Shown: positions 2,578 through 32,465, counted from the first letter of the stretch. The stretch: DNA of 64,000 bases from an uncultured bacterium (GCA_964562525.1 CAZLTL010000002.1:82468-146467), one strand, 5' to 3'. The notes: generated by a model not told the origin, from the sequence alone. Made by a program: numbers and translations.

Positions 2578-2612
2578 GGTCTTTAGTCGGTAGTCTTTAG
2601 TCGGTAGTCTGT
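2578..2612. promoter_or_regulatory. Tandem heptamer array (GGTCTTT AGTCGGT AGTCTTT AGTCGGT AGTCTGT) ending 14 nt before the cysE ATG
   Basis: Five contiguous 7-nt units of consensus (T)AGTCTN read directly; the same unit type and the same 14-nt spacing to a start codon recur at 32431..32465. Confidence 0.4.
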
Positions 2613-2625
2613 GTTAAAATTCCGC

Positions 2626-3303
2626 ATGTCAAATTTCATCTATAAAGTTAAGGCTGATTTTCACGGCTGCATTGAACGTGACCCCGCGGCGCAAACACCA
2701 TTCGGCTGGCTCGAGGTTCTTTTACTTTGCCCGGGCTTTCACGCGGTTTTGCTTTACCGTATCGCGCATGTGATTCATTCCTGGGGCGTGCCTGTTTTAC
2801 CGCGTTTCCTTTCTCAGGTTGGCCGATTCTTAACCGGCGTTGAAATTCATTCCGGCGCAAAAATCGGCGCAGGGCTTTTTATTGACCATGGTATGGGTGT
2901 GGTTATCGGTGAGACTTCCGAAATCGGCGAGAATGTGACCTTGTATCAAGGCGTTACGCTCGGAGGCACCGGTAATGAGCGCGGTAAGCGCCATCCGACT
3001 TTGGGTGACCATGTGGTGGTGGGTGCGGGCGCTAAGGTTTTAGGCAATATTCGTATCGGAAATTCGGTGAAAATCGGAGCCGGTTCGGTTGTTGTTCATC
3101 CCGTGCCGGATAATTGCACCGTGGTGGGCGTTCCGGCGGAGATTGTCCGTAAAGAAGGCAAAAAAGTCGCCTGCATTGATCTGGAGCATGGTGACTTGCC
3201 CGATCCTGTGCGCGAACTTAAAAACCGCGTACGTGCCTTGCAAAAAGAAATCGAAACCCTGGAAGCCCATCTTAAAATTCAGTCGGAAAAGTCAGACACT
3301 TAG
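2626..3303 (+). CDS. cysE: Serine O-acetyltransferase (short type)
   Basis: DPAA motif; ..FLTGVEIHSGAKIGAGLFIDHGMGVVIGETSEIGENVTLYQGVTLGGTG..RHPTLGD.. hexapeptide-repeat left-handed beta-helix typical of CysE. The track start is GTG 2611; ATG 2626 sits 14 nt after a heptamer array. Confidence 0.85.
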   Translation: MSNFIYKVKADFHGCIERDPAAQTPFGWLEVLLLCPGFHAVLLYRIAHVIHSWGVPVLPRFLSQVGRFLTGVEIHSGAKIGAGLFIDHGMGVVIGETSEIGENVTLYQGVTLGGTGNERGKRHPTLGDHVVVGAGAKVLGNIRIGNSVKIGAGSVVVHPVPDNCTVVGVPAEIVRKEGKKVACIDLEHGDLPDPVRELKNRVRALQKEIETLEAHLKIQSEKSDT

Positions 3304-3427
3304 ACTTTCTTCACTTTATTATTTAGCTCCTCGAGCCGTAAATAAGGAGGCAGTTTGTTGCCGTGACGCCGATGTGCGCGGTAGTTTTAATTTAGCTCTC
3401 ATTTTATAAATGGTTTGCGGAGGATTT

Positions 3428-3913
3428 ATGGTAGTTAAGAGATTGGGTCAAAAGGGGTTTACGCTGGTTGAAATTTTAATTGTGATCGCGGTGCTCGGTC
3501 TTTTGGTGACGATTGCCTTGCCCGCACTTTTGCGTAACCGGATTATTGCCAATGAAGCCGCCGCAAAATCCAATTTACAAACTTTCGCGGGCGCGATGGA
3601 GTCTTACCGTTCCGCTCAAGCGGCCCCTGCTTATCCGACGGATATGGATGATTTAACAAGCGCGATTCCTCCTTATTTGGATACGACTTGGGGCACGGGA
3701 ACAACCTTGACCAAGAGCGGATATGATTTAACTTATGTGCGCACGGACGGCACGATTTACGCATTGATCGCGGAGCCCGATCAAGTGAATGTGACCGGCA
3801 ATAATTCTTTTTGCGTGGATGAAACCGGTTTGATTTGGACTTCCGCGACCGCTGCGGGTGCTTTTACTGCTTCGCCTTGTTCCGGCGGGACCGGCGCGGC
3901 GACCATCGCTTAA
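3428..3913 (+). CDS. Type IV pilin / type II secretion pseudopilin-like protein (prepilin N-terminal methylation motif)
   Basis: N-terminus ..GQKGFTLVEILIVIAVLGLLVTIALPAL.. is the class III prepilin signal (G|FTLVE followed by a hydrophobic helix). SD GCGGAGG precedes ATG 3428; the track start is 3410. Confidence 0.7.
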   Translation: MVVKRLGQKGFTLVEILIVIAVLGLLVTIALPALLRNRIIANEAAAKSNLQTFAGAMESYRSAQAAPAYPTDMDDLTSAIPPYLDTTWGTGTTLTKSGYDLTYVRTDGTIYALIAEPDQVNVTGNNSFCVDETGLIWTSATAAGAFTASPCSGGTGAATIA

Positions 3914-3920
3914 TTTTTGC

Positions 3921-4337
3921 ATGAGTTCAAAATACTTTTCCTATTCCGACGGCGGCGCCCGCGGCAACCCAGGCCCTGCCGCGATCGGCGTGCTCATTTG
4001 CGATGAAAAAGGCACGACTGTTTTCGAGCAAGGCGAGACCATTGGCGACAACACCAACAATGTCGCGGAATACCAAGCGGTGATTAAAGCGCTGCAAATC
4101 ATGGAAGGCTTGGGAGCGCATGAAATTGTGCACCACATGGACAGTGAGCTTGTGACTAAACAATTGCGCGGAGAATATCGCTTGAAGGCTGAGCATTTGC
4201 GCCCTTTTTTTCTTAAAGTCAAAGAGCTCGAGAAAAAATTCAAAAAAATTACTTATATCCACGTTCCGCGCGAACATCCGCAAATGCGAAGGGCGGATCG
4301 CCAAGTGAATCGCGCTCTGGACGAAGCTGGTTTTTAA
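3921..4337 (+). CDS. rnhA: Ribonuclease HI
   Basis: SDGGARGNPGPAAIGVLI.. plus ..NNVAEYQAVIKAL.. and an HxxD region, the classic RNase H type 1 signature. ATG is at 3921; the track ORF begins earlier at GTG 3858 and overlaps the pilin gene. Confidence 0.8.
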   Translation: MSSKYFSYSDGGARGNPGPAAIGVLICDEKGTTVFEQGETIGDNTNNVAEYQAVIKALQIMEGLGAHEIVHHMDSELVTKQLRGEYRLKAEHLRPFFLKVKELEKKFKKITYIHVPREHPQMRRADRQVNRALDEAGF

Positions 4338-4694
4338 ATGCAAATTTTCTGGATTGCCCTCATCGGAGTTTTTGGCGGAATTATGAGCGGTCTTTTGGGT
4401 GTCGGCGGCGGACTTATTTTTGTACCGCTGATGACTTTTTTACTGGGCTTCACCATTCATCAGGCCGTTGGAACTTCGCTTTTGATTATTATTCCGACTT
4501 CGATTGTCGGCGTTTGGGTGCACGCATCGCAGGGGCACGTGCAAATCAAGACCGCCCTTCTCATTGCCAGCTTTGCAATTTTAGGCGCCTGGTTGGGCTC
4601 ACATTTTTCAGGCAAAATTGACCCCATTCTTCTCAAACGTCTTTTCGCGGCCTTTTTAGTTTTGATCGCGCTTAAGCTTGTTTTTGGTAAGTAG
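4338..4694 (+). CDS. Half-size TauE/SafE (TSUP, DUF81) family membrane protein
   Basis: Gly-rich TM helices (GGIMSGLLGVGGGLIFVPLM) typical of TSUP. It has only 118 aa, one 4-TM repeat unit, and starts in the TAAATG overlap with the rnhA stop. Confidence 0.5.
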   Translation: MQIFWIALIGVFGGIMSGLLGVGGGLIFVPLMTFLLGFTIHQAVGTSLLIIIPTSIVGVWVHASQGHVQIKTALLIASFAILGAWLGSHFSGKIDPILLKRLFAAFLVLIALKLVFGK

Positions 4695-4722
4695 CTCAAC
4701 TTTGATCGCGTCCGATAATCTC

Positions 4723-4748
4723 TAGTTTTAGTCTTCTCTAAGTCTCTC
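4723..4748. promoter_or_regulatory. Degenerate heptamer array (TAGTTTT AGTCTTC TCTAAGT CTCTCC) upstream of ccsB
   Basis: Two or three AGTCT-type units about 78 nt upstream of ccsB ATG 4826. Confidence 0.25.
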
Positions 4749-4825
4749 CCGAAAGAGCTTCCAAGCCGCTGGGGCGGGACTTATAATACCTCCTCTTCCG
4801 AGCTTCAGAACAACGGGCTGAGATC

Positions 4826-6604
4826 ATGGCTATTAAATCATCCGAAAAAAAGGTGGGGCAGAGTCTTTTTTTAAACGGCGCTATTCCGCGCGCCGTGTTT
4901 CGCTTTTTTGCGTCACTTCAGTTGGCAATCGGCACACTTTCCGCGCTGATGATTATTTTGGCGGTAGGAACGATTATCGAATCTCGCTTTAATGCCGATG
5001 CTGCCCGTATTTTGGTTTATGACACACCTTGGCTGACGCTTATTTTAGTTATTCTTGTGCTGAATCTGGCTTGTTCTGCGGCAGATCGTTTGCCCTGGCA
5101 AAAAAAGCATATTGGTTTTGTTCTGACGCACTTGGGTATCATTATTATTCTTGCCGGATCGCTTGCGACTCAAAAAGCTGCGGTGGACGGACAAATGTCG
5201 ATGACCGAAGGCTCTTCGGGTAAATGGGTGACGCTCAGAGAGCCGATGATTTATGTTTACTCGCAAGCTTTCAAAGAAGAACGCATGCTTCCTATGAAGG
5301 AGCGCGCCTTACGCTGGAAAGGAAAAGAAAAAATCGCGCATTTTCAGTCGGAAGATAAAAAAGCCGAGATTTTACTGACTCAGTTTTATCCGAACGTAAA
5401 ATCCGAAGAAGTTTGGGTTCCGGCTGAAAAAGGTCCCGCCGCAATTCGTGTTTCATTGTGGAATAACTTTGTGAATGTTACCAAGTGGCTTGCGGATACT
5501 CCGGCGGCGCGCGAACTACCTTTGGGACCGGCAACACTGAAATGGGCGGATTCATTCATTGAGGCCGCCGCTTCTCCGCAAACGGCATCGATTGAAATCA
5601 AATCAGAAAACGGAAGCTGGGCCATTCCGCTTCCCGATAAAACCGCGCTTCCTTTTGAGCAAAGCCTCGCGGGCGGTGCTGCGGTTAAAATTTTATCGGT
5701 TTATCAATACGCTTATGTTGAAGAGAACACTTTGAAAGAAGGTTTGCCGCCGGCGCATGCCGATAATCCTGCCGCGGTGCTTGAAATTACGAAAGATGGA
5801 AAAACCGAAAAGCATACGGTTTTCGCGCAATTTCCTGATTTTCCGACAGTGCATGGTAAGCCCGACAGCGAGTTCGGATTTCAGGCTCGGTACGCAGATC
5901 CGCGATTTGTGCCCAGCGCGGAAAGACATGAACTGCGTTTTGTTTCTCAGCCGGACGGCGTTTATTATCAAGTTGCCAATAAGGATCAGCTGACTCAGGG
6001 CAAAGTGGTTGTCGGACAGGAAGTTCAAACCGGCTGGATGGATTTAAAATTTAAAATAGAAGAAGTGTTGCCTCAGGCTAAGGCCGATGTGCAAATTACT
6101 CCGCTCGATGATGATGACCCGAGTGAAGCGGCCGTTGCGGCAGTGAAGCTGGATATTCACGGTTCGCAAACTCAATCTTTTTGGATGACGGAAGGATTGC
6201 AAAAAAGTCTTATGGTGGAGGGCGGTTTGTTTGAAATGGTTTATGGTCGCCGTCAGCTTCCGCTTGGCTTTGAAGTGATGCTGAAAGACTTTCGCATTAA
6301 ATTTGATCCCGGCACCGAAAGACCCGCGGCTTATGAAAGCGATGTGGTCGTCAAAGACTTTACGCATGGAAAATCATTTGAACAAACTATTTCAATGAAT
6401 AAGCCTTTGGTTTATCGGGGGTTTCATATTTATCAGGCAGGCTATCAGCAGAATCCTGACGGCACGGAAGCTTCCGTTTTTGCTGTCGCGCGCGACCCCG
6501 GCATTCCGATGAAATACGCCGGCGCGGCGATTATGGTTTTTGGAATTTTATTGATGTTTTATACGCGCGCTTACTCATCGCGCAACGAAAAAGGACTCAA
6601 ATGA
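4826..6604 (+). CDS. ccsB: Cytochrome c biogenesis protein CcsB/ResB family
   Basis: N-terminal TM helices, a large soluble (periplasmic) domain and a C-terminal TM; sits directly upstream of ccsA with an overlap (ATGA at 6601). Confidence 0.7.
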   Translation: MAIKSSEKKVGQSLFLNGAIPRAVFRFFASLQLAIGTLSALMIILAVGTIIESRFNADAARILVYDTPWLTLILVILVLNLACSAADRLPWQKKHIGFVLTHLGIIIILAGSLATQKAAVDGQMSMTEGSSGKWVTLREPMIYVYSQAFKEERMLPMKERALRWKGKEKIAHFQSEDKKAEILLTQFYPNVKSEEVWVPAEKGPAAIRVSLWNNFVNVTKWLADTPAARELPLGPATLKWADSFIEAAASPQTASIEIKSENGSWAIPLPDKTALPFEQSLAGGAAVKILSVYQYAYVEENTLKEGLPPAHADNPAAVLEITKDGKTEKHTVFAQFPDFPTVHGKPDSEFGFQARYADPRFVPSAERHELRFVSQPDGVYYQVANKDQLTQGKVVVGQEVQTGWMDLKFKIEEVLPQAKADVQITPLDDDDPSEAAVAAVKLDIHGSQTQSFWMTEGLQKSLMVEGGLFEMVYGRRQLPLGFEVMLKDFRIKFDPGTERPAAYESDVVVKDFTHGKSFEQTISMNKPLVYRGFHIYQAGYQQNPDGTEASVFAVARDPGIPMKYAGAAIMVFGILLMFYTRAYSSRNEKGLK

Positions 6605-8316
6605 AGAACAGAACAAATCGGCTTTCGGCTTTATTGCTTTTGCTTTCTCCGCTGTTTTTTTTCGGATCTTTTTCATCTTCTGCGATTGCCGCGGAGACCG
6701 TGTGGACGGAAACTTTGGCAAAAATTCCGGTTCAGCAAGGCGGCAGAGTGAAGCCCTTTGAAACGTTTGCGCGTGAAACCATTCTTTATGTTACGGGCAA
6801 AACAGCTTGGGAGAAAAAACCAGCCGTTGAAACGGTTTGGGATTGGATGGCGGCCCCGCAAAAATGGTTCAGTCAGCCTTTGATTTATGTCGGCGCTCCA
6901 CAGATTCGCGATGAATTCGGCCTCAAGCTGATTCGTAAACGTGTTTCACCCGAAGTGGTATTGGGGGAAAAAAACTTCGCGCAAAAAGTGCAGGATGCCA
7001 TTCACCGTCGCGAAAAGAAAGAGGCTCTTTCGTTCAATGATAAAAAGCGCATTGAAATTTATGAGCGTGCGGTATTCATGAGTCAGCTGGGTTCAGGCGA
7101 ATTGCCCGGCTGGATTCCTGAAACCAATAATCCGCATGGCGCGTGGATGCGCTTCAGTGATTTTGTAGCTGAAGAACCGAAAGAGTGGATGAAGGCTTTA
7201 CCCCGGGAAGCGGTTGATAACTTTAAAAAGTCTGCCGAGCAATTTGCTGCTGCTTTTCATGAAGGCGAAAGCGCTTTAAGCGTTAAAAATAAAGCCGCCG
7301 AAGATTTCAAAACGGCTTTGAGTTTAATTTGGAGCGGGGCGGGCTTGGTGATTGACCAAGGGACATTGGATCGGGAAATTTTTTACAACCGTCTGCATGC
7401 ATTCGGCCGCGGGTCTAAGCTTTATTTGATGGCGGCGCTTTTCTTTTTTGTGGCTTTGGTTTCGAATCGCCGACGCAAACAAGAACGCGATTATCCGCTT
7501 TGGGTGGGATTGGGTATTTATGCCGGCGCGATCGCGCTCCATGTTTTGGGTTTCTATTTACGCTGTTCTATTTCGGGACGAGCGCCTGTGACCAACATGT
7601 ATGAATCGATTGTCTGGGTATCGTTAGCCGCCGCGTTGTTTGCCGTCCCGATCTTTTTTTATTTGAAAAATGTCGCGGTGATGATCATGGCTTCTTGTGT
7701 CGCGGCATTAGGATTACTTGTTGCCGAATCTTTTCCTGCGGTGTTGGATCCTGCGCTATCTCCGCTTGTTCCGGTTTTACGCAGCAACTTATGGCTGACC
7801 GTGCATGTCTTAACCATCACGATGAGTTATGGTGCTTTCGCGCTGGCTTGGGCTTTGGGACATATTGTTGTTTTTGGTTATGTCTTCCGCAAGCAGACGG
7901 AAAGCTTGGCTTCGCTCGCAAACGCGGTTTATCGCGCGATTCAAATCGGCGTGGTGCTTCTCGCGGCGGGAACGGTGCTCGGCGGAGTTTGGGCGAATTA
8001 TTCCTGGGGCCGTTTTTGGGGCTGGGATCCGAAAGAAACCTGGGCGTTGATTGCCCTGCTTGGATACTTGATTGTTTTGCATGGCCGTTTTATCGGATGG
8101 TTTGGATCTTTCGGAATTGCCATGGGTGCGGTGCTCGCGTTTATGGGCGTTGTGATGGCATGGTATGGTGTTAATTTCGTGTTAGCTGCGGGATTGCATA
8201 GTTATGGTTTCGGCGGCGGGGGATATTCTTCGGTGTCCACGGTTGTTCTTTTGGATTTGGCTTTGATGGCCGCCGCTGCGTGGTTTTACCGGCAAAAGCA
8301 AAGAGGAAGCAAATGA
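6601..8316 (+). CDS. ccsA: Cytochrome c-type biogenesis protein CcsA (heme exporter / cytochrome c synthase subunit) with long N-terminal extension
   Basis: Trp-rich WWD signature ..WANYSWGRFWGWDPKETWALIALLGY.., multiple TM helices and a conserved His. Confidence 0.8.
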   Translation: MKNRTNRLSALLLLLSPLFFFGSFSSSAIAAETVWTETLAKIPVQQGGRVKPFETFARETILYVTGKTAWEKKPAVETVWDWMAAPQKWFSQPLIYVGAPQIRDEFGLKLIRKRVSPEVVLGEKNFAQKVQDAIHRREKKEALSFNDKKRIEIYERAVFMSQLGSGELPGWIPETNNPHGAWMRFSDFVAEEPKEWMKALPREAVDNFKKSAEQFAAAFHEGESALSVKNKAAEDFKTALSLIWSGAGLVIDQGTLDREIFYNRLHAFGRGSKLYLMAALFFFVALVSNRRRKQERDYPLWVGLGIYAGAIALHVLGFYLRCSISGRAPVTNMYESIVWVSLAAALFAVPIFFYLKNVAVMIMASCVAALGLLVAESFPAVLDPALSPLVPVLRSNLWLTVHVLTITMSYGAFALAWALGHIVVFGYVFRKQTESLASLANAVYRAIQIGVVLLAAGTVLGGVWANYSWGRFWGWDPKETWALIALLGYLIVLHGRFIGWFGSFGIAMGAVLAFMGVVMAWYGVNFVLAAGLHSYGFGGGGYSSVSTVVLLDLALMAAAAWFYRQKQRGSK

Positions 8317-9194: not shown

Positions 9195-9200
9195 TTTTTT

Positions 9201-10049: not shown

Positions 10050-10055
10050 GGCTTT

Positions 10056-12515: not shown

Positions 12516-12528
12516 TAAAGGTTATCCA

Positions 12529-15204: not shown

Positions 15205-15220
15205 AAGCTAATTATTTAAT

Positions 15221-22295: not shown

Positions 22296-22300
22296 AATTT

Positions 22301-22885: not shown

Positions 22886-23526
22886 AGTACGGAGACCAGC
22901 GGCCGGAGGCCAGAGGGTTGTTAGTTTTAAGTTTAATTCTTTGTTTTTCTCTCGGCGCACCGGCCTCCGGCCTCCAGCCCGTGTTTGCCAATGAAGTTTT
23001 GAATTCGCAGGAAATAGCCATGCCGTCTTCCGGTGCCGCTGTCATGGTTCGCGAAAACTCCAAAACCGGCACGCCTTATATCGTGATCACGGATCCCAAA
23101 GCTCCTCGATCTGATTTGGCCTCGCTTGATTCCAACAAATATCGCCGACCCGATTACCGCATGCTCGAAAAAAACGTGACCGCGAAAGATGTCGGGTATG
23201 ACGGTCCGTATAGTTCCAAGAAGAAAATATATATTCTCGCCGCAAGTTTGGCGGTTGCCGGAGCTGGAGCGGCGATCGCGGCGCCTGCGATTGCGCCTGC
23301 CGCGGCCGCAACCGGAGCTGTGGGAAGTGCCGCAGGTCCTGCCGTTGCAGCTGTTGGCGCAGGATCGGCATTAGCCGTAGCGGCAAAAAAATATCAGGAT
23401 CATTTCGAAAACCTGCCCGACGATTACAGCCGTGAATCGGAATCAAAAATCATCGAGACGGAAACGGACTTTTATCAAATGTATGTATCAAAGGTCGATA
23501 GGCGACCTTTTCAAAATCAGAACTGA
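22882..23526 (+). CDS. Hypothetical secreted protein with an Ala/Gly-rich low-complexity segment
   Basis: Signal peptide; ..AASLAVAGAGAAIAAPAIAPAAAATGAVGSAAGPAVAAVGAGSALAVAA.. Confidence 0.45.
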   Translation: MKYGDQRPEARGLLVLSLILCFSLGAPASGLQPVFANEVLNSQEIAMPSSGAAVMVRENSKTGTPYIVITDPKAPRSDLASLDSNKYRRPDYRMLEKNVTAKDVGYDGPYSSKKKIYILAASLAVAGAGAAIAAPAIAPAAAATGAVGSAAGPAVAAVGAGSALAVAAKKYQDHFENLPDDYSRESESKIIETETDFYQMYVSKVDRRPFQNQN

Positions 23527-23625
23527 TAAATCAGAAATCAAAACCATAGCCCAAAGCCTTTTAGATATTTGTAAAATCTTGGAGCCTTTAAGTTATGGTT
23601 CTGATCTTTGATTTTTAAACTATGA
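23525..23625. repeat. Repeat family A (palindromic REP/MITE-like element, about 100 bp), copy A1
   Basis: Arms ..AAATCAGAAATCAAAACCATAG.. and ..CTTTAAGTTATGGTTCTGATCTTTGATTT.. are inverted repeats; shared with A2-A5. Confidence 0.7.
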
Positions 23626-23634
23626 GTTATCTTT

Positions 23635-24489
23635 GTGCCTGAACTTCCCGAAGTCGAAACCATCAAAAATGATTTAGTGCGCGCCGGGCTTTGCGCGCGG
23701 ACGGTCGCCACAGCGGATATTTTTTGGCACCGTACATTGGCGCGTCCTTCCGCTGTTGAATTTCAAAAGCAAATCAAAAGCATGAGAATTGAAAAGCTTT
23801 CCCGCCGCGGCAAGTATTTGATATTGGAGTTGATGTCTCGCGGGCCTCAGGGCTCCGGCCGCCGGCCTGCGTTTTTAATTATGCACTTGAGGATGAGCGG
23901 ACGCATCGATTTAAAAGAAGCCGGTTTTGTTCCTCGTACGCATGATCGCGCACGGCTTGTCTTGGATGACGGAAGCCAACTCGTATTTCATGATACGCGC
24001 AAATTTGGACGCTGGTATTTTGTGGATGATGCCGAAAAAATTGTCGGCAAGCTCGGCATCGAACCGCTCGATAAGAATTTTACGGTCGGGTGGCTGGCTG
24101 AAAAAATAAAAAGCAAAAGCCGTGCTTTAAAACCGCTTTTGCTTGATCAGTCTTTTGTCGCGGGAATCGGCAACATCTATGCCGACGAGGCGCTTTGGTA
24201 TGCGAAGCTGCATCCCGAAACCAATTCGGCCAAATTAAAGGCGGAAGAAATTAAAGCGTTGCACGCGGGAATTGTAAAAGCGATTGAGTTGGGCATTCGC
24301 AACGCAGGAACTTCCATGGGAGTCGGCAAGGCTAACTTTTATAGCGTGGGTGGGAAGCGCGGGGGTAATCAAGAAAAGCTGAAAGTGTTTCGGCGAACCG
24401 GCGAAAAATGTCCGCGGTGTCATGCTAAAATTGTGCGCATTGTGGTGGGGCAGCGAAGCACGCATCTTTGTCCGAAATGCCAAAAATAG
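23635..24489 (+). CDS. mutM: Formamidopyrimidine-DNA glycosylase
   Basis: N-terminal PELPEVE with catalytic Pro2/Glu3 (GTG start), H2TH region, C-terminal zinc finger CPRCHAKI..THLCPKCQ. Confidence 0.85.
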   Translation: MPELPEVETIKNDLVRAGLCARTVATADIFWHRTLARPSAVEFQKQIKSMRIEKLSRRGKYLILELMSRGPQGSGRRPAFLIMHLRMSGRIDLKEAGFVPRTHDRARLVLDDGSQLVFHDTRKFGRWYFVDDAEKIVGKLGIEPLDKNFTVGWLAEKIKSKSRALKPLLLDQSFVAGIGNIYADEALWYAKLHPETNSAKLKAEEIKALHAGIVKAIELGIRNAGTSMGVGKANFYSVGGKRGGNQEKLKVFRRTGEKCPRCHAKIVRIVVGQRSTHLCPKCQK

Positions 24490-24497
24490 ATCAAAAT

Positions 24498-24600
24498 GCA
24501 TAAATCAGAAAGCAGAGCTATAGATTAAAACCGTTCGGATTTTCGAAAATCTTTGAATTTTAAGTTATGGTTCTGATTTCTGATCTTTGAACTCTGATCT
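24498..24600. repeat. Repeat family A, copy A2 (3' of mutM)
   Basis: ..ATAAATCAGAAAGCAGAGCTATAGATTAAAACC...TTTTAAGTTATGGTTCTGATTTCTGATCTTTGA.. Confidence 0.7.
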
Positions 24601-24615
24601 AAAACAGGGGGGATA

Positions 24616-25340: not shown

Positions 25341-25447
25341 AAGCAGAGCAGAGTTCAAAGATCAGAAATCAAAACCACAGATCAAAGCTTTTGAGACGTT
25401 TGAAATCTTTGAGCTTTAAGTTATGGTTCTGATTTTTAAGTTTTAAA
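25341..25447. repeat. Repeat family A, copy A3 (3' of the ABM gene)
   Basis: ..CAAAGATCAGAAATCAAAACCACAGATCAAAG...CTTTAAGTTATGGTTCTGATTTTTAAG.. Confidence 0.7.
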
Positions 25448-25464
25448 TTATTAACTAGGATTTT

Positions 25465-27396
25465 ATGGCGCTTATTAGTTTGCAGGGCGTTTCGCTTGCG
25501 TTCGGCGGCCCAAAATTGTTCGATGAAATGACGCTTCAAATCGAACTTGGTGAGCGCGTCGCTTTGCTTGGACGTAACGGTACGGGAAAAACCACGCTCA
25601 TGCGCGTGATCGCGCGCGAAATTTCATTGAACGAAGGTTCGGTTGTTTATCAGAAGAACAGCCGCGTGGCGTATCTTCCGCAGGAAGTGCCGGTCGATCT
25701 CGAAGGCACGGTTTTTGAAGTAGTCATCTCCGGCATGGGCGACCAGGTGAAATTGATCCGTGATTACCATCATGTGGCGCATCTGCTGCAAACCGAATAC
25801 AGCGAACAGCTCATGAAACGGCTCGACACTTTGCAGTCCGAAATGGACCGCACCAATGGCTGGGAAATTAACCAGCAAGTGGAACAAGTTGTCGCGCAAG
25901 TTCGGCTCGATCCTGAAAGTGACTTTAAAACTTTATCCGGCGGACAAAAGCGACGCGCTCTTTTAGCCAAAGCGCTTGTTTTAAAACCCGATTGTTTGTT
26001 GCTCGACGAACCGACCAACCATTTGGATATTGAATCCATCGACTGGCTCGAAGCTTTTTTGAAAGAATTCAAAGGCACCATTATTTTCGTCACTCATGAC
26101 CGTATGTTTATGACGCGGCTCGCCACTAAAATTGTGGAGCTCGACCGAGGTAAACTTTTCAGCTGGTCTTGCGATTACCCGACTTTTCTTGAGCGTAAAC
26201 AAATGGCCCTTGATGCCGAAGCCGCCGAGGGCGCGCGCTTTGATAAAAAGCTGGCGCAAGAAGAAGTTTGGATTCGTCAGGGAATTAAAGCCCGCCGCAC
26301 CCGTAACGAAGGCCGCGTGCGCGAACTTGAAAAATTGCGTTTGCAGAAAAAAGCTCAACGCAAACAAATCGGCAAAGTCAAAATGCAGGCACAGGAAGCG
26401 GATGTTTCAGGGCAGGTGGTGACGAAGGCCGATCATATTTACCAGGCTTACGGCGATAAGAATCTGATCGAAAATTTTTCAACGCGCATTATGCGCGGCG
26501 ATAAAATCGGCATCATCGGCCCCAACGGCTGCGGAAAAACCACTTTGCTTAAAATCTTGCTCGGACAAATGCCTCCGCAAAAAGGCACGGTGCATTTGGG
26601 CACGAACTTGCAAGTGGCGTATTACGATCAGCTGCGCGAAGAGCTGGATGGAGAAAAAACCGTCATGCAAAACGTCGCCGATGAAGGCGACTTTGTGCAC
26701 ATCAACGGCAAGGCGCGTCACGCCATGGGCTATTTGATGGATTTTCTTTTTTCTCCCGAGCGCGCGCGCACTCCCGCGAAAGTTTTATCGGGCGGCGAAC
26801 GTAACCGTCTTTTTCTTGCGCGCCTTTTTACTAAGCCTTGCAATACTTTGGTGATGGACGAACCCACCAACGATCTCGACATTGAAACCTTAGAATTGCT
26901 CGAAGAACTTTTGATCGAATTTTCAGGTACGGTGATTGTCGTCAGCCATGACCGCGAATTTTTAAACAAAGTGGTTACTTCAACCATTGTGTTGGACGGT
27001 AAAGGCAAAATCGAAGAATACATCGGCGGCTATGATGATTGGGTGCGCCAGCACAACTCCAAAGCCGAAACGGTTCAGCAGCAAATCGAACACGAAGAAG
27101 AGGATGAGCCCCAGCCTAAGAAAAAAGAGCCTGAGCCTGAGAAAAAAACCGCAGTTAAAAAAATGACCATGGGGGAGAAGCTCGAGCTCGAAAAACTTCC
27201 CGCGCAGATCGATAAGCTGGAAACTGAGCAAAAAGAAATTTATCTGCGCATGGCCGACCCCATGTTTCGCCATGGTAAGGCGGAGGAGATTGCCCAAATC
27301 AAACAGCGCCTCAAAGACATCGCCGAAGAGCTTAAGACGGCTTATGCCCGCTGGGAAGTTTTGCTTGAGAAAGAAAAAGAATCTCCCAAAAAATAA
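25465..27396 (+). CDS. uup: ABC-F family ATPase (Uup/YheS-like, two ABC domains, no TMD)
   Basis: Two Walker A motifs (GRNGTGKTT; GPNGCGKTT), two LSGGQ/LSGGE signatures, a linker and a charged coiled-coil C-terminus. Confidence 0.85.
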   Translation: MALISLQGVSLAFGGPKLFDEMTLQIELGERVALLGRNGTGKTTLMRVIAREISLNEGSVVYQKNSRVAYLPQEVPVDLEGTVFEVVISGMGDQVKLIRDYHHVAHLLQTEYSEQLMKRLDTLQSEMDRTNGWEINQQVEQVVAQVRLDPESDFKTLSGGQKRRALLAKALVLKPDCLLLDEPTNHLDIESIDWLEAFLKEFKGTIIFVTHDRMFMTRLATKIVELDRGKLFSWSCDYPTFLERKQMALDAEAAEGARFDKKLAQEEVWIRQGIKARRTRNEGRVRELEKLRLQKKAQRKQIGKVKMQAQEADVSGQVVTKADHIYQAYGDKNLIENFSTRIMRGDKIGIIGPNGCGKTTLLKILLGQMPPQKGTVHLGTNLQVAYYDQLREELDGEKTVMQNVADEGDFVHINGKARHAMGYLMDFLFSPERARTPAKVLSGGERNRLFLARLFTKPCNTLVMDEPTNDLDIETLELLEELLIEFSGTVIVVSHDREFLNKVVTSTIVLDGKGKIEEYIGGYDDWVRQHNSKAETVQQQIEHEEEDEPQPKKKEPEPEKKTAVKKMTMGEKLELEKLPAQIDKLETEQKEIYLRMADPMFRHGKAEEIAQIKQRLKDIAEELKTAYARWEVLLEKEKESPKK

Positions 27397-27839
27397 GCTC
27401 TGAATAAGATCCCGAATCTAAGGAAACAGATCCGGAATTTGTGCCGGTTCCGGGCTTTTGCAACCGCCTTCGCTTCTTTGTCTTTAAAATAAATTTGCTT
27501 TCCCCCTTGAATATGGGGATAGATCGTGCACCCTTTAATCATAGGCACGATTTTGAAGCTGTACTCAAAGGAGGCCATATGAACGAAGATTGGGATATCG
27601 AATAACAGCATTCCGCTAAACTGATATTTCGCTTGCTCTGATGGTCTGCGACCACAGGCAGTACTCGCTTCGCTGTTAAATACCGCGGAAGCATAAGCAA
27701 ACCCCTGACCGCGCGCATGCCTTTGTATTACCCCGATCGATGATTTAGCCTCCCTCTGAAAAAGCATATCCCCGCTATAAGCCCTTTGTCCGCGCGCTCA
27801 AAATGGATTCATTGAAATAGATGAACCAAGCGAGGCGTT

Positions 27840-28115
27840 ATGAAAAAATATTTGTTTGTAAGTACTGTCGTTGTTCTTGTTTTAATTTTTAGCGCTCCTG
27901 TTTTTGCTTATTCGGTTTCGGTTCAAGCCAAACTTCAAAATACGTGGGAACAAAAAGGTTCGCTTTGGGATGGAGCGGCGCTTCTGTTTTCGAATTTCAA
28001 AGCCGGCCAAAATAAAAATGCGGGCGTTGCTAAAGTGACGCGGCCGGTTGTGGTGCAGGAGCCGGAGTGGAGTCAGCAGTTGAATTCGATGCGTGCGTTT
28101 GCAACATCAGCTTAA
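27840..28115 (+). CDS. Small hypothetical secreted protein
   Basis: Signal peptide MKKYLFVSTVVVLVLIFSAPVFA; 91 aa; followed by a hairpin plus T-run inside repeat family D. Confidence 0.4.
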   Translation: MKKYLFVSTVVVLVLIFSAPVFAYSVSVQAKLQNTWEQKGSLWDGAALLFSNFKAGQNKNAGVAKVTRPVVVQEPEWSQQLNSMRAFATSA

Positions 28116-28119
28116 TTTG

Positions 28120-28200
28120 CTCAGTCGCCGCATGGCTTTTGTCCTCACCGCCGGACGGGCTAGCCGCTCCAAAGCCGCGGCTGGCTTCGGAAAGCCTTTT
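28120..28200. repeat. Repeat family D, copy D1
   Basis: CTCAGTCGCCGCATGGCTTTTGTCCTCACCGCCGGACGGGCTAGCCGCTCCAAAGCCGCGGCTGGCTTCGG; compare D2. Confidence 0.6.
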
Positions 28201-28202
28201 TT
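28176..28202 (+). terminator. Hairpin plus T-run inside repeat D1, after 27840..28115
   Basis: GGCTTCGGAAAGCC followed by TTTTTTG. Confidence 0.4.
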
Positions 28203-28213
28203 GCTACGGTATT

Positions 28214-28240
28214 TTTTGAACAAATGATTTTGTTCAAAAA
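28214..28240. repeat. Perfect 12-4-12 palindrome TTTTTGAACAAA-TGAT-TTTGTTCAAAAA
   Basis: Read directly; the arms resemble the family-B terminal inverted repeats (..GTTCAAAA..). Confidence 0.5.
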
Positions 28241-28329
28241 CACCTGTCGCTCAAGCGCCGATCTTTAAATAAAAGGGAATCGTTGATTTCCGCGATGCCG
28301 CAAAAAAGTGCTTTCCTGTATAAAGCAGA

Positions 28330-28402
28330 GGCGGTTGCCTTCGGCGTTTCCCGTCTTATTGCTTCCTCAGCTCGTGAATCTCGCTTCGGAAGCTGGCGCT
28401 TG
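28330..28402. repeat. Repeat family E, copy E1 (immediately upstream of arsR)
   Basis: ..TTGCCTTCGGCGTTTCCCGTCTTATTGCTTCCTCAGCTCGTGAATCTCGCTTCGG.. Confidence 0.65.
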
Positions 28403-28428
28403 ACTATATCTGCTTATGCAGATATAGT
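28403..28428. promoter_or_regulatory. Perfect palindrome ACTATATCTGC-TTAT-GCAGATATAGT abutting the arsR start; candidate ArsR operator
   Basis: 11-bp arms with a 4-bp spacer read directly; ArsR/SmtB repressors classically bind inverted repeats overlapping their own promoter. Confidence 0.5.
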
Positions 28429-28785
28429 TTGATTATGAAATTGAAAGACACGCAGGTTATTTTTGGGGCTTTGGCGGACGCGACGCGTTTCCGTATTTTG
28501 AATTTGCTCTCCGAAGGGGAGCTTTGCGTTTGCGACATCATGCAGGTTTTAAAAGCGCCGCAGTCGAAGATATCTCGGCATTTGTCTTATTTGCGCCGCG
28601 CGGGGCTTGTGGATGCGCGCAAAGAGGGCCTGTGGATGCATTACCGGCTCGCTAAGCCGAAGATCAAAGTTTTAAAGGCGGTGTTTCAGTCTTTCGGCTG
28701 CTGCCGAGAAGATTTTGCCGAGCTACAAAATGATTTGAATGAATTTCGTAAAAATAAAAACTGTCTAGTCTCTTGCTGTAAGTGA
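28429..28785 (+). CDS. arsR: ArsR/SmtB family metalloregulator
   Basis: wHTH with the canonical ..ELCVCDIMQVL.. metal site in helix alpha-3; C-terminus ends ..NCLVSCCK; a perfect palindrome abuts the start (TTG 28429 or ATG 28435). Confidence 0.8.
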   Translation: MIMKLKDTQVIFGALADATRFRILNLLSEGELCVCDIMQVLKAPQSKISRHLSYLRRAGLVDARKEGLWMHYRLAKPKIKVLKAVFQSFGCCREDFAELQNDLNEFRKNKNCLVSCCK

Positions 28786-28814
28786 TTTAGTTAAAATCAA
28801 AGGGGGTGAGAATC

Positions 28815-28850
28815 ATGGACGGTTGTTGCGGAAGCGGATGCTGCAAATAG
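28815..28850 (+). CDS. Candidate 11-aa cysteine-rich micro-ORF (MDGCCGSGCCK) between arsR and acr3
   Basis: SD AGGGGGTGAG lies 4 nt upstream of ATG 28815; four Cys in 11 residues; it ends in CCK like the ArsR C-terminus. Not in the ORF track because it is under 60 aa. Confidence 0.3.
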   Translation: MDGCCGSGCCK

Positions 28851-28927
28851 GCATTCCAATCACTCCCCACAAAGATGATGACGATCATCTTTGCCGGGAG
28901 TTTTTAAACATATGAAAAGTTGAATCG

Positions 28928-29989
28928 ATGCAAAAGCTTTCTTTTTTAGACCGGTATTTAACAGTTTGGATTTTTGCGGCCATGGCCGTGGGCGTGGCGC
29001 TTGGGTATTTCTTTCCCGGCGTTGAACGGGTTATTAATTCATTTCAAGTTGGCACGACGAATATTCCCATCGCGGCAGGACTCATTCTGATGATGTATCC
29101 ACCCCTTGCCAAGGTTCGCTATGAAGAACTGGGGGATGTTTTTAAGAATAAAAAAATTCTGATTCTAAGCCTCATCCAAAACTGGGTGATCGGTCCGGTG
29201 CTCATGTTTGTTTTGGCGGTTCTTTTTTTACGCGACCAGCCCGAATATATGGCCGGCCTTATTTTAATCGGCCTCGCGCGCTGTATTGCCATGGTGATTG
29301 TTTGGAATAAACTCGCCGAAGGCAATTCCGAATATGCCGCGGGGCTTGTGGCCTTCAACAGTGTGTTTCAGGTTTTATTTTTCAGCGCATACGCCTATTT
29401 CTTTATTTCATTTTTACCCAAGCTTTTCGGTATGGAAAGTTTCGCCGTAGCGGTTTCTATGCGCCAAATTGCCGAAAGTGTTTTTATTTATCTCGGCATT
29501 CCGTTTCTGGCGGGCATGATCACGCGATTCAGTTTGCTTAAAGCAAAAGGCGCCGCTTGGTATGAAAATCAATTTTTGCCCAAAATTAGCCCGCTAACTC
29601 TCGCGGCTTTGCTTTTCACCATTTTGATCATGTTCAGCCTCAAAGGAAATTACATCGTTCAAATCCCGCTGGATGTCGTCAAAATCACGCTCCCGCTTCT
29701 GATTTATTTTGTCGTCATGTTTCTTTTCAGTTTTTGGATGTCAAAAATAGCCGGCGCTGATTATTCCAAATCCGTCACGCTTTCATTCACCGCTGCGAGC
29801 AATAACTTTGAGCTCGCCATCGCGGTTGCCATCGCTGTTTTCGGCGTGAATTCCGGGCAAGCGTTTACCGCCGTGATCGGGCCGCTTGTCGAAGTGCCCG
29901 TCATGATTGGCTTGGTGCATGTTGCATTTTGGATTCGCGGAAAATATTTTAAAAATATCGAGATCAAACAAACCGAGGGTTGCTGCTGA
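28928..29989 (+). CDS. acr3: Arsenite efflux permease, ACR3 family
   Basis: 10-TM BART-superfamily profile; N-terminal ..[16 protein letters not shown].. and ..[17 protein letters not shown].. are typical of ACR3. Confidence 0.85.
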
Positions 29990-29990
29990 T

Positions 29991-30410
29991 ATGAAAAAAA
30001 GTGTTTTAATTCTCTGTACGGGCAATTCATGCCGCTCGCAAATGGCAGAGGGCATTTTGCGGCATTTCGGTTCCGATAAGTTCAATGTTTTAAGCGCGGG
30101 CACAAAGCCGTCAGTTGTGAACAAGACTGCAATTAAAGTGATGCAGGAAATCGGCATCGATATCTCAGAGCATCGATCGAAACACATTGATGAGTTTTTA
30201 GGTCAAAAAATAGATTTTATTATTTCAGTTTGCGACAATGCCAAAGAATCTTGCCCGATCTTTCCGGGCGGAACGACTCGTCTGCATTGGCCGTTTCCGG
30301 ATCCGCCTCACGACAAAGATATTACCGAAGCTGTTTTGAATGAGTTTCGGAAAGTGCGTGATTTGATTCTTGTTCGGTTTAAGGCTTTGGGGGAGACGGG
30401 GAAGTTTTAG
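29991..30410 (+). CDS. arsC: Arsenate reductase (thioredoxin-coupled LMW-PTP type)
   Basis: ..VLILCTGNSCRSQMAEG.. P-loop C-x5-R; downstream Cys and Asp residues; ATG 29991 lies 1 nt after the acr3 stop (the track ORF starts earlier at 29907). Confidence 0.85.
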   Translation: MKKSVLILCTGNSCRSQMAEGILRHFGSDKFNVLSAGTKPSVVNKTAIKVMQEIGIDISEHRSKHIDEFLGQKIDFIISVCDNAKESCPIFPGGTTRLHWPFPDPPHDKDITEAVLNEFRKVRDLILVRFKALGETGKF

Positions 30411-30487
30411 ATTTCTTGTCGCTACTGCTCTTGGCTTGTCATCCTCGCGAATGCGGGGATCCAGTGATTGACTCTCATGATGGTTCC

Positions 30488-30565
30488 TCGACTTGAAACT
30501 CTTCGTCTGCTCAGACAGTCGCGTCCGTTGGCGCGAAACTCGCATTCGAAGAGTTTCAATTCGAG
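30488..30565. repeat. Repeat family C, diverged partial copy C5 (reverse orientation, 3' of arsC)
   Basis: Reverse complement ..GAGTTTCGCGCCAACGGACGCGACTGTCTGAGCAGACG.. parallels the C core GAGTTCTGCGCCGAYAGGACGCAGCTGTYTGAGC. Confidence 0.4.
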
Positions 30566-30611
30566 TCTCTTCCGCAAAAGGGGCGGTGGGCTGTCAAAGG
30601 AGAAAGCCTTG

Positions 30612-30682
30612 GCTTTGCCTTCGGCGTTTCCCGTCATATTTGCCCCCTCGGCTAGTGAATCTCGCCTTTGGGAGCAGTTTTT
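30612..30682. repeat. Repeat family E, copy E2 (downstream of arsC, same orientation as E1)
   Basis: ..TTTGCCTTCGGCGTTTCCCGTCATATTTGCCCCCTCGGCTAGTGAATCTCGCCTTTGG.. is about 80% identical to E1. Confidence 0.65.
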
Positions 30683-30743
30683 ATCCTCAAAATATCGGTT
30701 GCGATTGATTTAAAATCTGACAGAATTCACAGCAGACTAAAGA

Positions 30744-30775
30744 CCAAAGACTGACGACCAATGACTTTTTCAGAG
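30744..30775. promoter_or_regulatory. Tandem heptamer array in inverse orientation (AGACTAA AGACCAA AGACTGA CGACCAA TGAC) upstream of the 30822 island ORF
   Basis: Reverse complement of the TAGTCTN unit, four or more copies; it forms an imperfect inverted repeat with the 32431..32465 array across the island ORF. Confidence 0.4.
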
Positions 30776-30821
30776 CCAGTATCTTTGGAAATATTCCGAT
30801 CCCTGCTGCGATAAGGACTTC

Positions 30822-32381
30822 ATGAGAATTGTTAGGCTTCAAAAAGCGGTTAGTATAATTGCTTCGGAAATTCGAAATAATATTGAGAATCATCGTCTGC
30901 CCAAATTGGTTCGAGATGAAATAAAGGCAATCATTTCAGAGTATGTGGAAGAAATCTATAAAATCGCGGCCGTAAACTCTCTTGAAAAGCGAATTGTTGA
31001 GTTGAAGAAGGCGGATCTATCTTCTATAGCAAAAGTTTTGGACATTATTTTAGAATACCATCCCCCCAAATATACTCTTACTTTTGCGGATGAAAAAACA
31101 AGAGAAGTTGACCCGATACAAAAGATCAATGAGCTTAAGAGTTGGATTTCCAATGCTGATGGCAATCAAATTAAATTGGGCTCAATGGAAATATTATTTC
31201 GATTGGAGCTTGTTTTTGATTCCAAAATGAATGAGATAATGATGGCTTTTGAAAAGAGAAGCCCTGTTTTTAAGAGAGTCAAACAAGATGTTCTTGCTAA
31301 ACTTAAAAAAGTTAGAAAAGATGACCTGTTATTGTTGTGGGCAGATTTGAAATCTAAGTTTCGAAATAAAGATGATGATCATCACGGCTACGTTTTTTAT
31401 AAAGATATTATTCCTGAGGATTTTTGGGATATATCACCCAAGTCAATTTCGTTAGATGAGGTGGCGGAAAGATATGCAGATTTTATTGTCGAATATAAAC
31501 CGCTTACTGTGCGGAGAATGATAGCTGAAGGTTACAATGCTTACCCAGTTGGGCCATTGGGGATTGCCCGCAGCCTAGCCCTCTCCTCATCTCAAGGAAA
31601 AAATAATGTTTCGGAGTTTGATGTGTTGGTAATTCGAACTTTAAGCAAAGTTATTAGCCTTTTTGAGAAAATTACATATGCAAATAAATCAGAACTAGCC
31701 AGAGCTATTAACGCCAATCAAGACTCGTTTGTTTTTGACGGTGAGTTTTTTCAAGCCGCAAAAAAAGAATTGGAGGAAATGCGAAATAATTCGTCGGTGA
31801 GTTTTGTGGAAAGCCTTTCAGCGTCTATGGAAAGATTAAATAGCTACGCCATGGAAAATCAAAGTTCTGGCTCTAAAGTTGAAAGACTGCTCTTTAACTA
31901 TAAGCTCTCGCGTGAGGTTTCGCCCCCTGATATTTCAGCTGGTAAGAAAAATGAAATAGCTCTACAGAAGGATCTTTGTAAGTTTCTCATAGAGAATGAT
32001 ATTGTTGCATATGGGAAAATCTTTGGTAGAAGCCAAATTGATTTTTATATAAAAGAAGGGGAGCTTCCGATTGCTGAAGAGTATGTTGTGGAAACAAAAG
32101 TTTTTCGTAGAGGCAGGGCTGTTAATCCAAGTGTGATAAAGGCAAATTTAGTGCAGTTGCAATCTTACATGGATATTCACAAGCAGCCGCGCGGTATTTT
32201 GGCTATTTATAACTATTCGGATGATTTGATTTACGTGCCCGATAAACGTTGGTTGCATGGACAATACTGGATATTGGTGGTTAATATTGGGACAGCAACA
32301 GCAAGCAAAAGGAAAAGGTCTTTAAAAATCGTTGAATCAAGCAGCCCCAAAAATTTGATAGATATAATAGTTAATGCGTAG
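30822..32381 (+). CDS. Hypothetical 519-aa protein in an AT-rich (probably acquired) segment; no recognisable domain
   Basis: Long uninterrupted ORF at roughly 37% GC against a ~50% background; flanked by inverted heptamer arrays. The C-terminal region (..QIDFYIKEGELPIAEEYVVETKVF..) has a D..E.K arrangement faintly reminiscent of PD-(D/E)xK nucleases; this is inference only. Confidence 0.55.
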   Translation: MRIVRLQKAVSIIASEIRNNIENHRLPKLVRDEIKAIISEYVEEIYKIAAVNSLEKRIVELKKADLSSIAKVLDIILEYHPPKYTLTFADEKTREVDPIQKINELKSWISNADGNQIKLGSMEILFRLELVFDSKMNEIMMAFEKRSPVFKRVKQDVLAKLKKVRKDDLLLLWADLKSKFRNKDDDHHGYVFYKDIIPEDFWDISPKSISLDEVAERYADFIVEYKPLTVRRMIAEGYNAYPVGPLGIARSLALSSSQGKNNVSEFDVLVIRTLSKVISLFEKITYANKSELARAINANQDSFVFDGEFFQAAKKELEEMRNNSSVSFVESLSASMERLNSYAMENQSSGSKVERLLFNYKLSREVSPPDISAGKKNEIALQKDLCKFLIENDIVAYGKIFGRSQIDFYIKEGELPIAEEYVVETKVFRRGRAVNPSVIKANLVQLQSYMDIHKQPRGILAIYNYSDDLIYVPDKRWLHGQYWILVVNIGTATASKRKRSLKIVESSSPKNLIDIIVNA

Positions 32382-32430
32382 AAAAAAGGTGCTGCGCACC
32401 AAAGGGACAAGTAAGTTTTGACCTGAATTA

Positions 32431-32465
32431 TAGTCTGTAGTCTTCAGTCGTTGGTCGTTAGTCTT
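32431..32465. promoter_or_regulatory. Tandem heptamer array (TAGTCTG TAGTCTT CAGTCGT TGGTCGT TAGTCTT) ending 14 nt before ATG 32479
   Basis: Five contiguous 7-nt units; immediately followed by SD AGGAG. Confidence 0.4.

Follow-up and report, generated by a model that had tools for sequence, protein, structure and literature searches.

The 64,000-nt stretch of DNA analysed here (hereafter the window) comes from an uncultured bacterium (GCA_964562525.1 CAZLTL010000002.1:82468-146467). The nearest named homologues of its serine O-acetyltransferase (CysE) and of a Lys-rich zinc-ribbon protein (about 40-73% identity) suggest that the host genome probably belongs to Candidatus Omnitrophota. The window contains three arrays of tandemly repeated heptamers: one directly upstream of cysE, a second directly upstream of the zinc-ribbon gene, and a third, in inverted orientation, in front of a 519-aa open reading frame (ORF) within a low-G+C island (Table 1). 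Each array consists of exactly five head-to-tail 7-nt units with no spacers, extending over 35 nt, and all three are unified by an RGTC core that recurs at a period of 7. An earlier sequence-only reading had counted four such arrays, placed two of them at an identical distance of 14 nt before start codons, and proposed from this spacing a function as an operator, as iteron-like sites or in the 5' untranslated region (5' UTR). Three of the four arrays are real, with the inverted one lying at 30733-30767 rather than at 30744-30775. The supposed degenerate copy upstream of ccsB (4723-4748, plus strand) is no array and was rejected: its AGTC and AGTT cores are 6 and 11 nt apart and fall in no 7-nt register. 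This segment is instead a variable stretch between the conserved blocks cgtccgataat and cccgaaagagct, and is not conserved in a 96%-identical orthologue.

Table 1. Coordinates and properties of the heptamer arrays, the associated genes and signals, and other repeats of the window.
Feature	Position	Strand	Description
Array 1	2577-2611	+	TGGTCTT TAGTCGG TAGTCTT TAGTCGG TAGTCTG
Extended -10 element of cysE	2612-2620	+	TGtTAAAAT; conserved in orthologous loci
cysE (serine O-acetyltransferase)	2626-3303	+	225 aa; TIGR01172, 229.9 bits (cut-off 210.65); Hexapep domain
Variable island (array 3 and 519-aa ORF)	30676-32380		low G+C (0.41); differs in closest relative
41-nt element beside array 3	30690-30727		cggttgcgattga...aaaatctgacagaatt
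Array 3 (inverted)	30733-30767	-	AAGTCAT TGGTCGT CAGTCTT TGGTCTT TAGTCTG
519-aa island ORF	30822-32381		no family match
Terminator-like hairpin	32388-32400	-	GGTGCGCAGCACC then TTTTTT
Array 2	32431-32465	+	TAGTCTG TAGTCTT CAGTCGT TGGTCGT TAGTCTT
Shine-Dalgarno sequence of zinc-ribbon gene	32469-32473	+	AGGAG; 5 nt before ATG at 32479
Lys-rich zinc-ribbon protein gene	32479-32955	+	158 aa; CxxC-x17-CxxC; PF23477, TIGR04272
Repeat of ~150 nt, three copies	32973-33126, 55657-55813, 58432-58523 (inverted)		80-90% identity
Hairpin repeat of ~120 nt, full copies	23506-23629, 24492-24608, 25345-25460, 40274-40399		core ...AGAAATCAAAACCATAGAT... / ...AAGTTATGGTTCTGATTTCT...
Hairpin repeat of ~120 nt, half copy	38189-38243
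Composite intergenic repeat	37918-38024, 57791-57898, 51844-51873 (partial)		hairpin-containing block (CTTCCTTGTGCGGCGTAGGTTTCACTACGCCTCCGCGGTCG), ~10 nt later GCCTAGCATCC-N-TTTTGA
Further GCCTAGCATCC...TTTTGA motifs	17047, 55508, 61117
CTCGGGN/CCGGCCT-type arrays inside ORFs	43927-43961, 22960-22979, 57122-57144, 23843-23867		G+C-rich

The unit common to the three arrays is T-R-G-T-C-K-K, which in the register beginning with the core reads GTC-K-K-Y-R. In the same register the consensus for the lineage is GTCTTTA, with the G, T and C invariant and T the commonest base at positions 4-6. All three arrays are detected by Tandem Repeats Finder, which additionally reports a perfect 14-nt tandem duplication within array 1 (period 14, 2.3 copies, 100% matches); at period 7 the units are imperfect, with 74% matches. 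That the arrays are no product of chance, as previously held, is borne out by shuffled sequence, which yielded no arrays of at least four units and no match to the three-unit pattern AGTCNNNAGTCNNNRGTC, as against four matches in the window; a chance origin is thereby ruled out. A folded RNA element was likewise rejected: in single-stranded form, whether RNA or DNA, the arrays do not fold better than shuffled controls (z about +0.6), and Rfam returned no match at the gathering threshold across the window; at E <= 1 the surroundings of 30500-32700 likewise gave no relevant match. A Rho-binding (rut-like) site was dropped because the array strand has more G than C. No flanks shared between the arrays and no larger repeat family containing them were found, and neither a replication gene nor a regulator gene adjoins them.

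The start of cysE is backed by 225-aa orthologues that cover 100% of the query and by the TIGR01172 match, which exceeds its cut-off (Table 1). A consensus scan recovered no full sigma-70 promoter at the arrays, and the -10 box of cysE came to light only by comparing the window with five orthologous loci of relatives (L134, L135, L136, L138 and L260; 81-96% protein identity). The sole upstream sequence common to all six is T-A-n-n-A-T followed by 5 nt and the ATG, and in the window the extended -10 element is separated from the start codon by the 5 nt tccgc. L136 and L138, which have no array at this site, show TTGAAG-N17-TATAAT-N5-ATG, a textbook sigma-70 promoter that would start the transcript at or beside the A of the cysE ATG. 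This TTGAAG -35 box at 17 nt is present only where cysE has no heptamer array. A TGn-extended -10 element is seen where an array or its remnant is present (TGtTAAAAT in the window, TGtTAATAT in L260 and TGgTATAAT in L135), in no case together with a -35-like hexamer. Given that in each of the six genomes exactly 5 nt separate the -10 box from the ATG, we conclude from this conservation and from the established geometry of sigma-70 promoters that the cysE mRNA appears to be leaderless. Array 1 covers about -15 to -49 of cysE, i.e. the place of the -35 box and the spacer. Lying upstream of the -10 box, it is therefore outside the 5' UTR of the proximal transcript, and there are 14 nt between it and the ATG because the extended -10 box and a 5-nt discriminator fill them. 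No convincing terminator was found between cysE and the co-directional gene upstream, so that read-through into cysE from the latter is possible.

At the zinc-ribbon gene a different signal occupies the corresponding gap. Array 2 stops 3 nt before the Shine-Dalgarno sequence, which is contained in the 13 nt that separate the array from the ATG (aatAGGAGtattt), and a purine-rich, Shine-Dalgarno-like run is found at the same place in all zinc-ribbon orthologues; no promoter of this gene was located by the consensus scan. The sequence-only reading had correctly recognized this Shine-Dalgarno sequence and both start codons (2626 and 32479). Its identical spacing of 14 nt came from the use of a different repeat register for each array: in a common register, with T-first units, cysE has a gap of 14 nt and the zinc-ribbon gene one of 13 nt, and the last GTC lies 17 and 16 nt, respectively, from the A of the ATG. 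The argument from spacing fails, as the gaps differ by 1 nt and hold different signals, namely a -10 box and a Shine-Dalgarno sequence. What survives of the proposed functional placement is that it is non-random and beside initiation signals; it involves no fixed distance, no operator or iteron, and, at cysE, no 5' UTR.

Several further features were observed around the zinc-ribbon gene. The terminator-like hairpin just upstream of it is conserved in L130, without a minus-strand gene to its right, and may terminate an antisense transcript. One copy of the ~150-nt repeat directly follows the gene, and the Logan contigs L001 and L002 end inside this repeat, which may be a miniature inverted-repeat transposable element, a small RNA or a terminator module. 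A second segment swap is also seen after the gene, between window positions 32957-34810 and positions 1996-2402 of L130.

Array 3 lies between two divergently oriented ORFs: one of 71 aa on the minus strand, whose ATG is 95 nt away, and the 519-aa ORF, whose ATG at 30822 is 54 nt away. The latter has no match in Pfam, NCBIfam or PADLOC, and an E-x-K-like motif in its C-terminal part was seen by eye only. The closest relative, L130 (161-1395), carries three small ORFs instead of the island between conserved flanks. Neither island boundary coincides with an array, and array 2 accompanies the zinc-ribbon gene even in L127, where the gene upstream is a different one. Because of this mismatch of the boundaries, and because array 2 travels with the zinc-ribbon gene, arrays 2 and 3 are not the terminal repeats of the island. 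The 41-nt element beside array 3 recurs in L131 (1088-1128) with 90% identity; its sequence, cggttgcgattgaWtYaaaatctgacagaatt, is readable as a promoter-like TTGCGA-N16-CAGAAT. In the window a heptamer array lies to the right of this element, and in L131 an array of three units lies to its left.

Comparison of orthologous sites reveals rapid turnover of the arrays. Upstream of cysE, L135 (86% amino acid identity) has five units and the same junction with diverged non-core positions, L260 (88%) has a decayed array that has lost cores and keeps only the last unit and the junction, and L134 (96%) has a perfect (CTGATTT)n array abutting TATAAT; L136 (85%) and L138 (81%) have none. Upstream of the zinc-ribbon gene, L127 (87%) has the three units TAGTCTG TAGTCTT AAGTCTT, followed by 14 nt to the ATG. 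In L130 (95%) the upstream flank is alignable and is followed by a small hairpin and the unrelated units CTCGGGC CTCGGGG CTCCGGC CTCTGGG, i.e. (CTCGGGN)4; four further relatives (76-85%) have no array. Elsewhere in relatives, L132 carries an array of the same unit in a convergent 3' spacer, and L131 has one that precedes a start codon by 60 nt. Of about five independent loci of the lineage, only two have the array next to a start codon. What the orthologous sites show, namely that arrays are born, grow, decay and are replaced, is the pattern of simple-sequence repeats and is unlike the conservation expected of an operator. L134, a 4.2-kb contig and the closest cysE relative, begins (1-27) within its perfect (CTGATTT)n array and ends (4154-4184) within a perfect (CGAGCCA)n array that starts 15 nt into the gene after ccsB. 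As assemblers break at long or polymorphic repeats, this suggests that the L134 arrays are of that kind in the population concerned.

The three arrays are part of a more general preference for this period. Imperfect tandem repeats of period 7 number 13 in the window, as against 0.1 expected from shuffles, and every other period among 4-15 is represented by 0-5 arrays. Seven of the 13 are intergenic, with intergenic DNA making up 12% of the window (P = 3.5e-4). Relatives show this excess of period 7 too, with nine arrays in 114 kb of their sequence. These arrays fall into at least three unit families: T-R-G-T-C-K-K, with three loci in the window and others in L127, L131, L132 and L135; CTGATNT, which builds the arms of a family of hairpin repeats (see below); and the G+C-rich CTCGGGN. 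Taken together, the excess of period 7, the existence of several unit families and their occurrence in relatives indicate that T-R-G-T-C-K-K is one family in a lineage-wide habit of forming heptamer arrays. Units of the CTCGGGN type are also found in the ychF leader of L136 as well as in place of array 2 in L130, and arrays of CTCGGGN/CCGGCCT type occur inside ORFs of the window (Table 1), one of them in the C-terminal tail of aconitase past the last Pfam domain and another in the N-terminal domain of Fpg.

Related arrays are also scattered far beyond this lineage. They were collected in a scan of genomes, one per species, for five RGTC cores at period 7 (loci L003-L122 listed) and in a scan of metagenomes for the narrower T-R-G-T-C-K-K pattern (loci L140-L259 listed), and the following statements refer to the matches listed. 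The genome matches come from Cyanobacteria, Acidobacteriota, Verrucomicrobiota, Planctomycetota, Chloroflexota, Gemmatimonadota, Bacteroidota and Streptomyces, with many cyanobacterial TGGTCAT and TAGTCAT arrays among them, and the metagenome matches come from contigs of 34-76% G+C. About 14% (genomes) and 31% (metagenomes) of the intergenic arrays have a nearby inverted partner with which they could form a hairpin, and ~40% of all arrays lie in long stop-free stretches. A cross-phylum rule that GTC arrays stand just before start codons is unsupported, with no forward excess at 0-30 nt among the 223 arrays listed, as judged by crude ORF heuristics. Often an inverted array comes after the first, allowing a long hairpin to form, as in L021, L014, L019, L189, L248 and L153. 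Some (T/C)(A/G)GTCNN arrays are coding, and that of L221 encodes a hydrophobic N-terminus.

The reading we favour, with moderate confidence, is that the arrays of the window belong to a lineage-wide family of heptameric simple-sequence repeats, comparable to the cyanobacterial STRR families, that persist up to the very edge of initiation signals. Such arrays would arise in non-essential intergenic DNA, grow by duplication of one or two units and turn over fast, and would persist as long as they do not intrude on a -10 box or a Shine-Dalgarno sequence. The near-constant distance of 13-14 nt would then reflect the width of the initiation signals and not a measured spacing. Growth in unit number would have occurred by slippage; signs of recent duplication are seen in the perfect 14-nt repeat of array 1 and in the three units of L127 as against five in the window at the same site. 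In the case of cysE the array would have taken the place of the -35 box, leaving a promoter that relies on its extended -10 box, and the array therefore probably lowers or tunes the strength of this promoter. In the case of the zinc-ribbon gene, array 2, if transcribed, would form an unstructured U/G-rich leader. Comparison with the relatives makes the life cycle of such repeats visible with unusual clarity, from occupation of a promoter through gain and loss of units to decay and replacement by other heptamers, including the displacement of a -35 box by an array with an extended -10 box appearing alongside. As it stands, no new regulatory system is revealed.

Certain observations weigh against this reading. 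The GTC core is kept in 32-33 of 33 units, with the four other positions varying freely; for the distinct units of the window such invariance has a probability of (4/7)^11 = 0.002 and would not be predicted by neutral decay. All three arrays of the window have exactly five units. In several places, arrays that are independent of one another and built from different units come to an end immediately 5' of a Shine-Dalgarno sequence or a -10 box, namely at cysE, at the zinc-ribbon gene, at ychF of L136 (where an upstream TATAAT puts the array in the leader) and at the right arms of the hairpin repeats, which is unexpected because uniform seeding in 100-nt spacers would not predict it. Finally, both loci retain an array in relatives at 86-88% amino acid identity.

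Since sites repeated contiguously every 7 bp cannot all face the same side of a duplex, any reader of the arrays should be single-strand-specific, and binding of such a protein, to which the GTC core and the unit GTCTTTA point, is the best remaining functional lead. Its most explicit version, which we consider unlikely, holds that the arrays are docking pads for a single-strand-binding protein of the oligonucleotide/oligosaccharide-binding (OB) fold, most specifically a cold-shock-domain protein or, alternatively, ribosomal protein S1. Each 7-nt unit would correspond to the footprint of one domain, with five monomers side by side and the cytosine of each GTC in the cytosine pocket of the protein. 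The mRNA leader, or at cysE the read-through intercistronic RNA, would thereby be kept single-stranded before the start codon, and initiation would be tuned by the number of units and possibly by temperature. Bacillus subtilis CspB binds a heptanucleotide of consensus 5'-GTCTTTG/T-3' and has a strong preference for T at positions 2, 4 and 6 and for C at position 3 (PMC1904285); GUCUUUA is the RNA co-crystallised with it (PDB 3pf4). The array unit GTCTTTA matches both, its invariant G, T and C corresponding to ligand positions 1-3, among them the two that CspB favours most (T at 2 and C at 3), and its length to the domain footprint. Consistent with such binding, a period of 7 nt fits the footprint of a single-strand binder but would not place sites on one face of a duplex. 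The arrays are also unstructured, and at both co-directional loci it is the sense strand that carries GTC. Moreover, cold-shock proteins, S1 and CsrA had earlier been proposed as binders of the TAACTGA repeats of other bacteria (PMC4679880).

Against docking, the match is post hoc: a random unit fits GTCTTT, in any rotation and on either strand, in ~14 of 4096 cases for each candidate binder, of which several were considered. Cold-shock domains are of limited sequence selectivity, the CspB ligand was defined in vitro for a Bacillus protein, and no natural tandem arrays of it were found in the literature covered. At the orthologous sites the closest relatives have (CTGATTT)n and (CTCGGGN)4, the latter G+C-rich, and the array of L260 has lost cores. 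Single GTCKKT motifs are not enriched in intergenic DNA (0.77 vs 0.75 per kb-strand), array 1 lies upstream of the proximal cysE -10 box, and GTC-type arrays across phyla show, among the matches listed, no excess within the 30 nt before start codons. No cold-shock gene was found in the window or in the 114 kb of relatives, an amount of sequence too limited to be informative. If true, docking could explain the recurrence of GTC-type heptamer arrays, including cyanobacterial STRR2, across phyla, and would give the unexplained excess of heptamers in bacteria a testable molecular reader. The equivalence of the array unit with the best ligand of a cold-shock protein is a hypothesis that can be cheaply tested.

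Less probable still, and in our estimate quite improbable, is a phase-variable promoter switch in which slippage alters the number of units and toggles cysE or the zinc-ribbon gene. The precedent is provided by the promoter heptanucleotides of Haemophilus influenzae, TGAAAGA at hmw1A/hmw2A and AACAACC at 13 bp before a TonB-receptor gene, where unit number modulates expression and different types of simple-sequence repeat are found at the same locus in different strains (PMC2651432). The arrays of this lineage resemble them in being 7-nt repeats in or beside promoters, with different repeat types at the same place. In favour of a switch, array 1 lies inside the cysE promoter and holds a perfect 14-nt duplication, unit number differs between relatives, and the L134 contig breaks inside perfect arrays. 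However, the H. influenzae tracts are long and perfect (13-38 units) and vary within populations, whereas the arrays of the window are short and their imperfect units would suppress slippage. The array region shows no difference between two independent assemblies of the same strain, and no variation within the strain was seen. Furthermore, cysE is a housekeeping gene, and, with a periodic array joined to the -10 box at a fixed point, a gain or loss of units would leave the sequence at -35 unchanged, which also counts against phase variation.

We give very little credence to a duplex operator or iteron-like array at a fixed distance of 14 nt that would define a small regulon of cysE, the zinc-ribbon gene, ccsB and the island ORF. 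Three 35-nt arrays with a common core, two of them close to start codons, are in keeping with it. Against it, a common register gives spacings of 14 and 13 nt, array 3 is separated from the start codons on its two sides by 54 and 95 nt, and the ccsB site holds no array. A contiguous 7-bp period turns successive sites by ~240 degrees on B-DNA and so alternates its faces, and iterons are typically 17-22 bp in length. The unit is not conserved at orthologous promoters, with unrelated heptamers at 95-96% identity and none at 76-85%, and this, together with the alternation of faces, makes an iteron or duplex operator unlikely. The array-free cysE promoters of L136 and L138 suggest function without arrays, and no replication or regulator gene is adjoining. 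Least credible of all is an origin in a mobile element, either as sub-motifs of miniature inverted-repeat transposable elements (MITEs) or with arrays 3 and 2 as terminal repeats of the 1.7-kb island: these two arrays are inverted, bracket a low-G+C segment that differs in the closest relative and are ~77% complementary when compared by eye, but any two arrays of the family are ~75% alike, so that the complementarity is not specific; the island boundaries are off the arrays, array 2 is present in L127 beside a different upstream gene, no transposase or integrase lies nearby, and there are no target-site duplications, shared flanks or larger repeat family around the arrays, which accordingly are not parts of MITEs, as the sequence-only reading had allowed they might be.

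Two other families of dispersed repeats were noted in the window. The hairpin repeats of ~120 nt, with a conserved core and arms of CTGATNT-like heptamers, are all placed between co-directional genes, with 5-20 nt between the end of the right arm and the start codon that follows. Folding is good in three of the four full copies (minimum free energy -31 to -41 kcal/mol, z -2.7 to -4.9) and weak in the copy at 25345-25460 (-25 kcal/mol, z -1.3). The second family is the composite intergenic repeat, the GCCTAGCATCC...TTTTGA motif of which also occurs at other positions (Table 1).

Among known systems, a comparable arrangement of short motifs is found in the RNA targets of TRAP and HutP in Bacillus, in which a short invariant core recurs at a fixed short period, with free spacer bases, and is bound by a ring-shaped oligomer near a start codon or terminator. 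The HutP pattern, UAG plus 4 nt, has a period of 7. The window arrays share with these targets the short invariant core, the fixed short period and the free bases in between. However, their conserved core is GTC, and UAG, present by coincidence in some units, is not conserved, for which reason a HutP- or TRAP-type UAG array was dropped; the arrays are not conserved, unlike those regulons, and no such protein was found.

The motif, which the sequence-only reading had not recognized, corresponds instead to the class of heptameric simple repeats described in cyanobacteria, Xanthomonas and the Beggiatoaceae. Heptameric repeats are over-represented among bacterial simple repeats and are strongly intergenic in Xanthomonas and Nostoc (PMC4692102). 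The GGGAATC repeats of Xanthomonas and the GGGGA(T/C)T repeats of Nostoc typically have ~4 units, include some inverted pairs and are of unknown function; they occur between corresponding genes in related species, with variable length and sequence (Rehm et al. 2015, PMC4692102). Like the window arrays they are heptameric and intergenic, with some positions of the unit conserved and others free. Their units are G-rich and can form G-quadruplexes, which those of the window cannot. The TAACTGA repeats of marine Beggiatoaceae, which also occur in other phyla, are present in 2-6 contiguous copies at many intergenic sites, most of them preceding a start codon in forward orientation, and the functions of the genes that follow show no pattern; their proposed binders are the S1, cold-shock and CsrA proteins named above (MacGregor 2015, PMC4679880). 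They share with the arrays described here the organization as contiguous 7-nt direct repeats dispersed at several intergenic sites and differ from them in the unit, TAACTGA as against T-R-G-T-C-K-K. Most TAACTGA sets take the place of the ribosome-binding site, ending ~1 nt from the start codon, whereas the arrays beside cysE and the zinc-ribbon gene stop short of the start codon by 13-14 nt, with the -10 box or the Shine-Dalgarno sequence kept intact, and other arrays of the lineage are 54-95 nt off or in a 3' position.

A further parallel is provided by the cyanobacterial families STRR1 (CCCCAGT), STRR2 (TTGGTCA) and STRR3 (CAACAGT), which Mazel et al. reportedly described in 1990 and which are cited in PMC4692102. 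Heptamers constitute an over-represented class among the longer simple repeats of bacteria, and their function is unexplained more than 30 years after the STRR families were described. The STRR arrays, whose function is likewise unknown, are often much longer and more uniform than those of the window and belong to another host phylum. Both are lineage-specific families of tandem heptamers dispersed in intergenic DNA, and STRR2 has a GGTC core too. The window arrays are contiguous and dispersed, belong to a lineage with an excess of period 7 and an intergenic enrichment of such arrays, and are variable between relatives, all of which are characteristic of STRR-like repeats. This kind of repeat is already known in other bacteria, and the family described here, from a poorly studied uncultivated phylum, adds to it.

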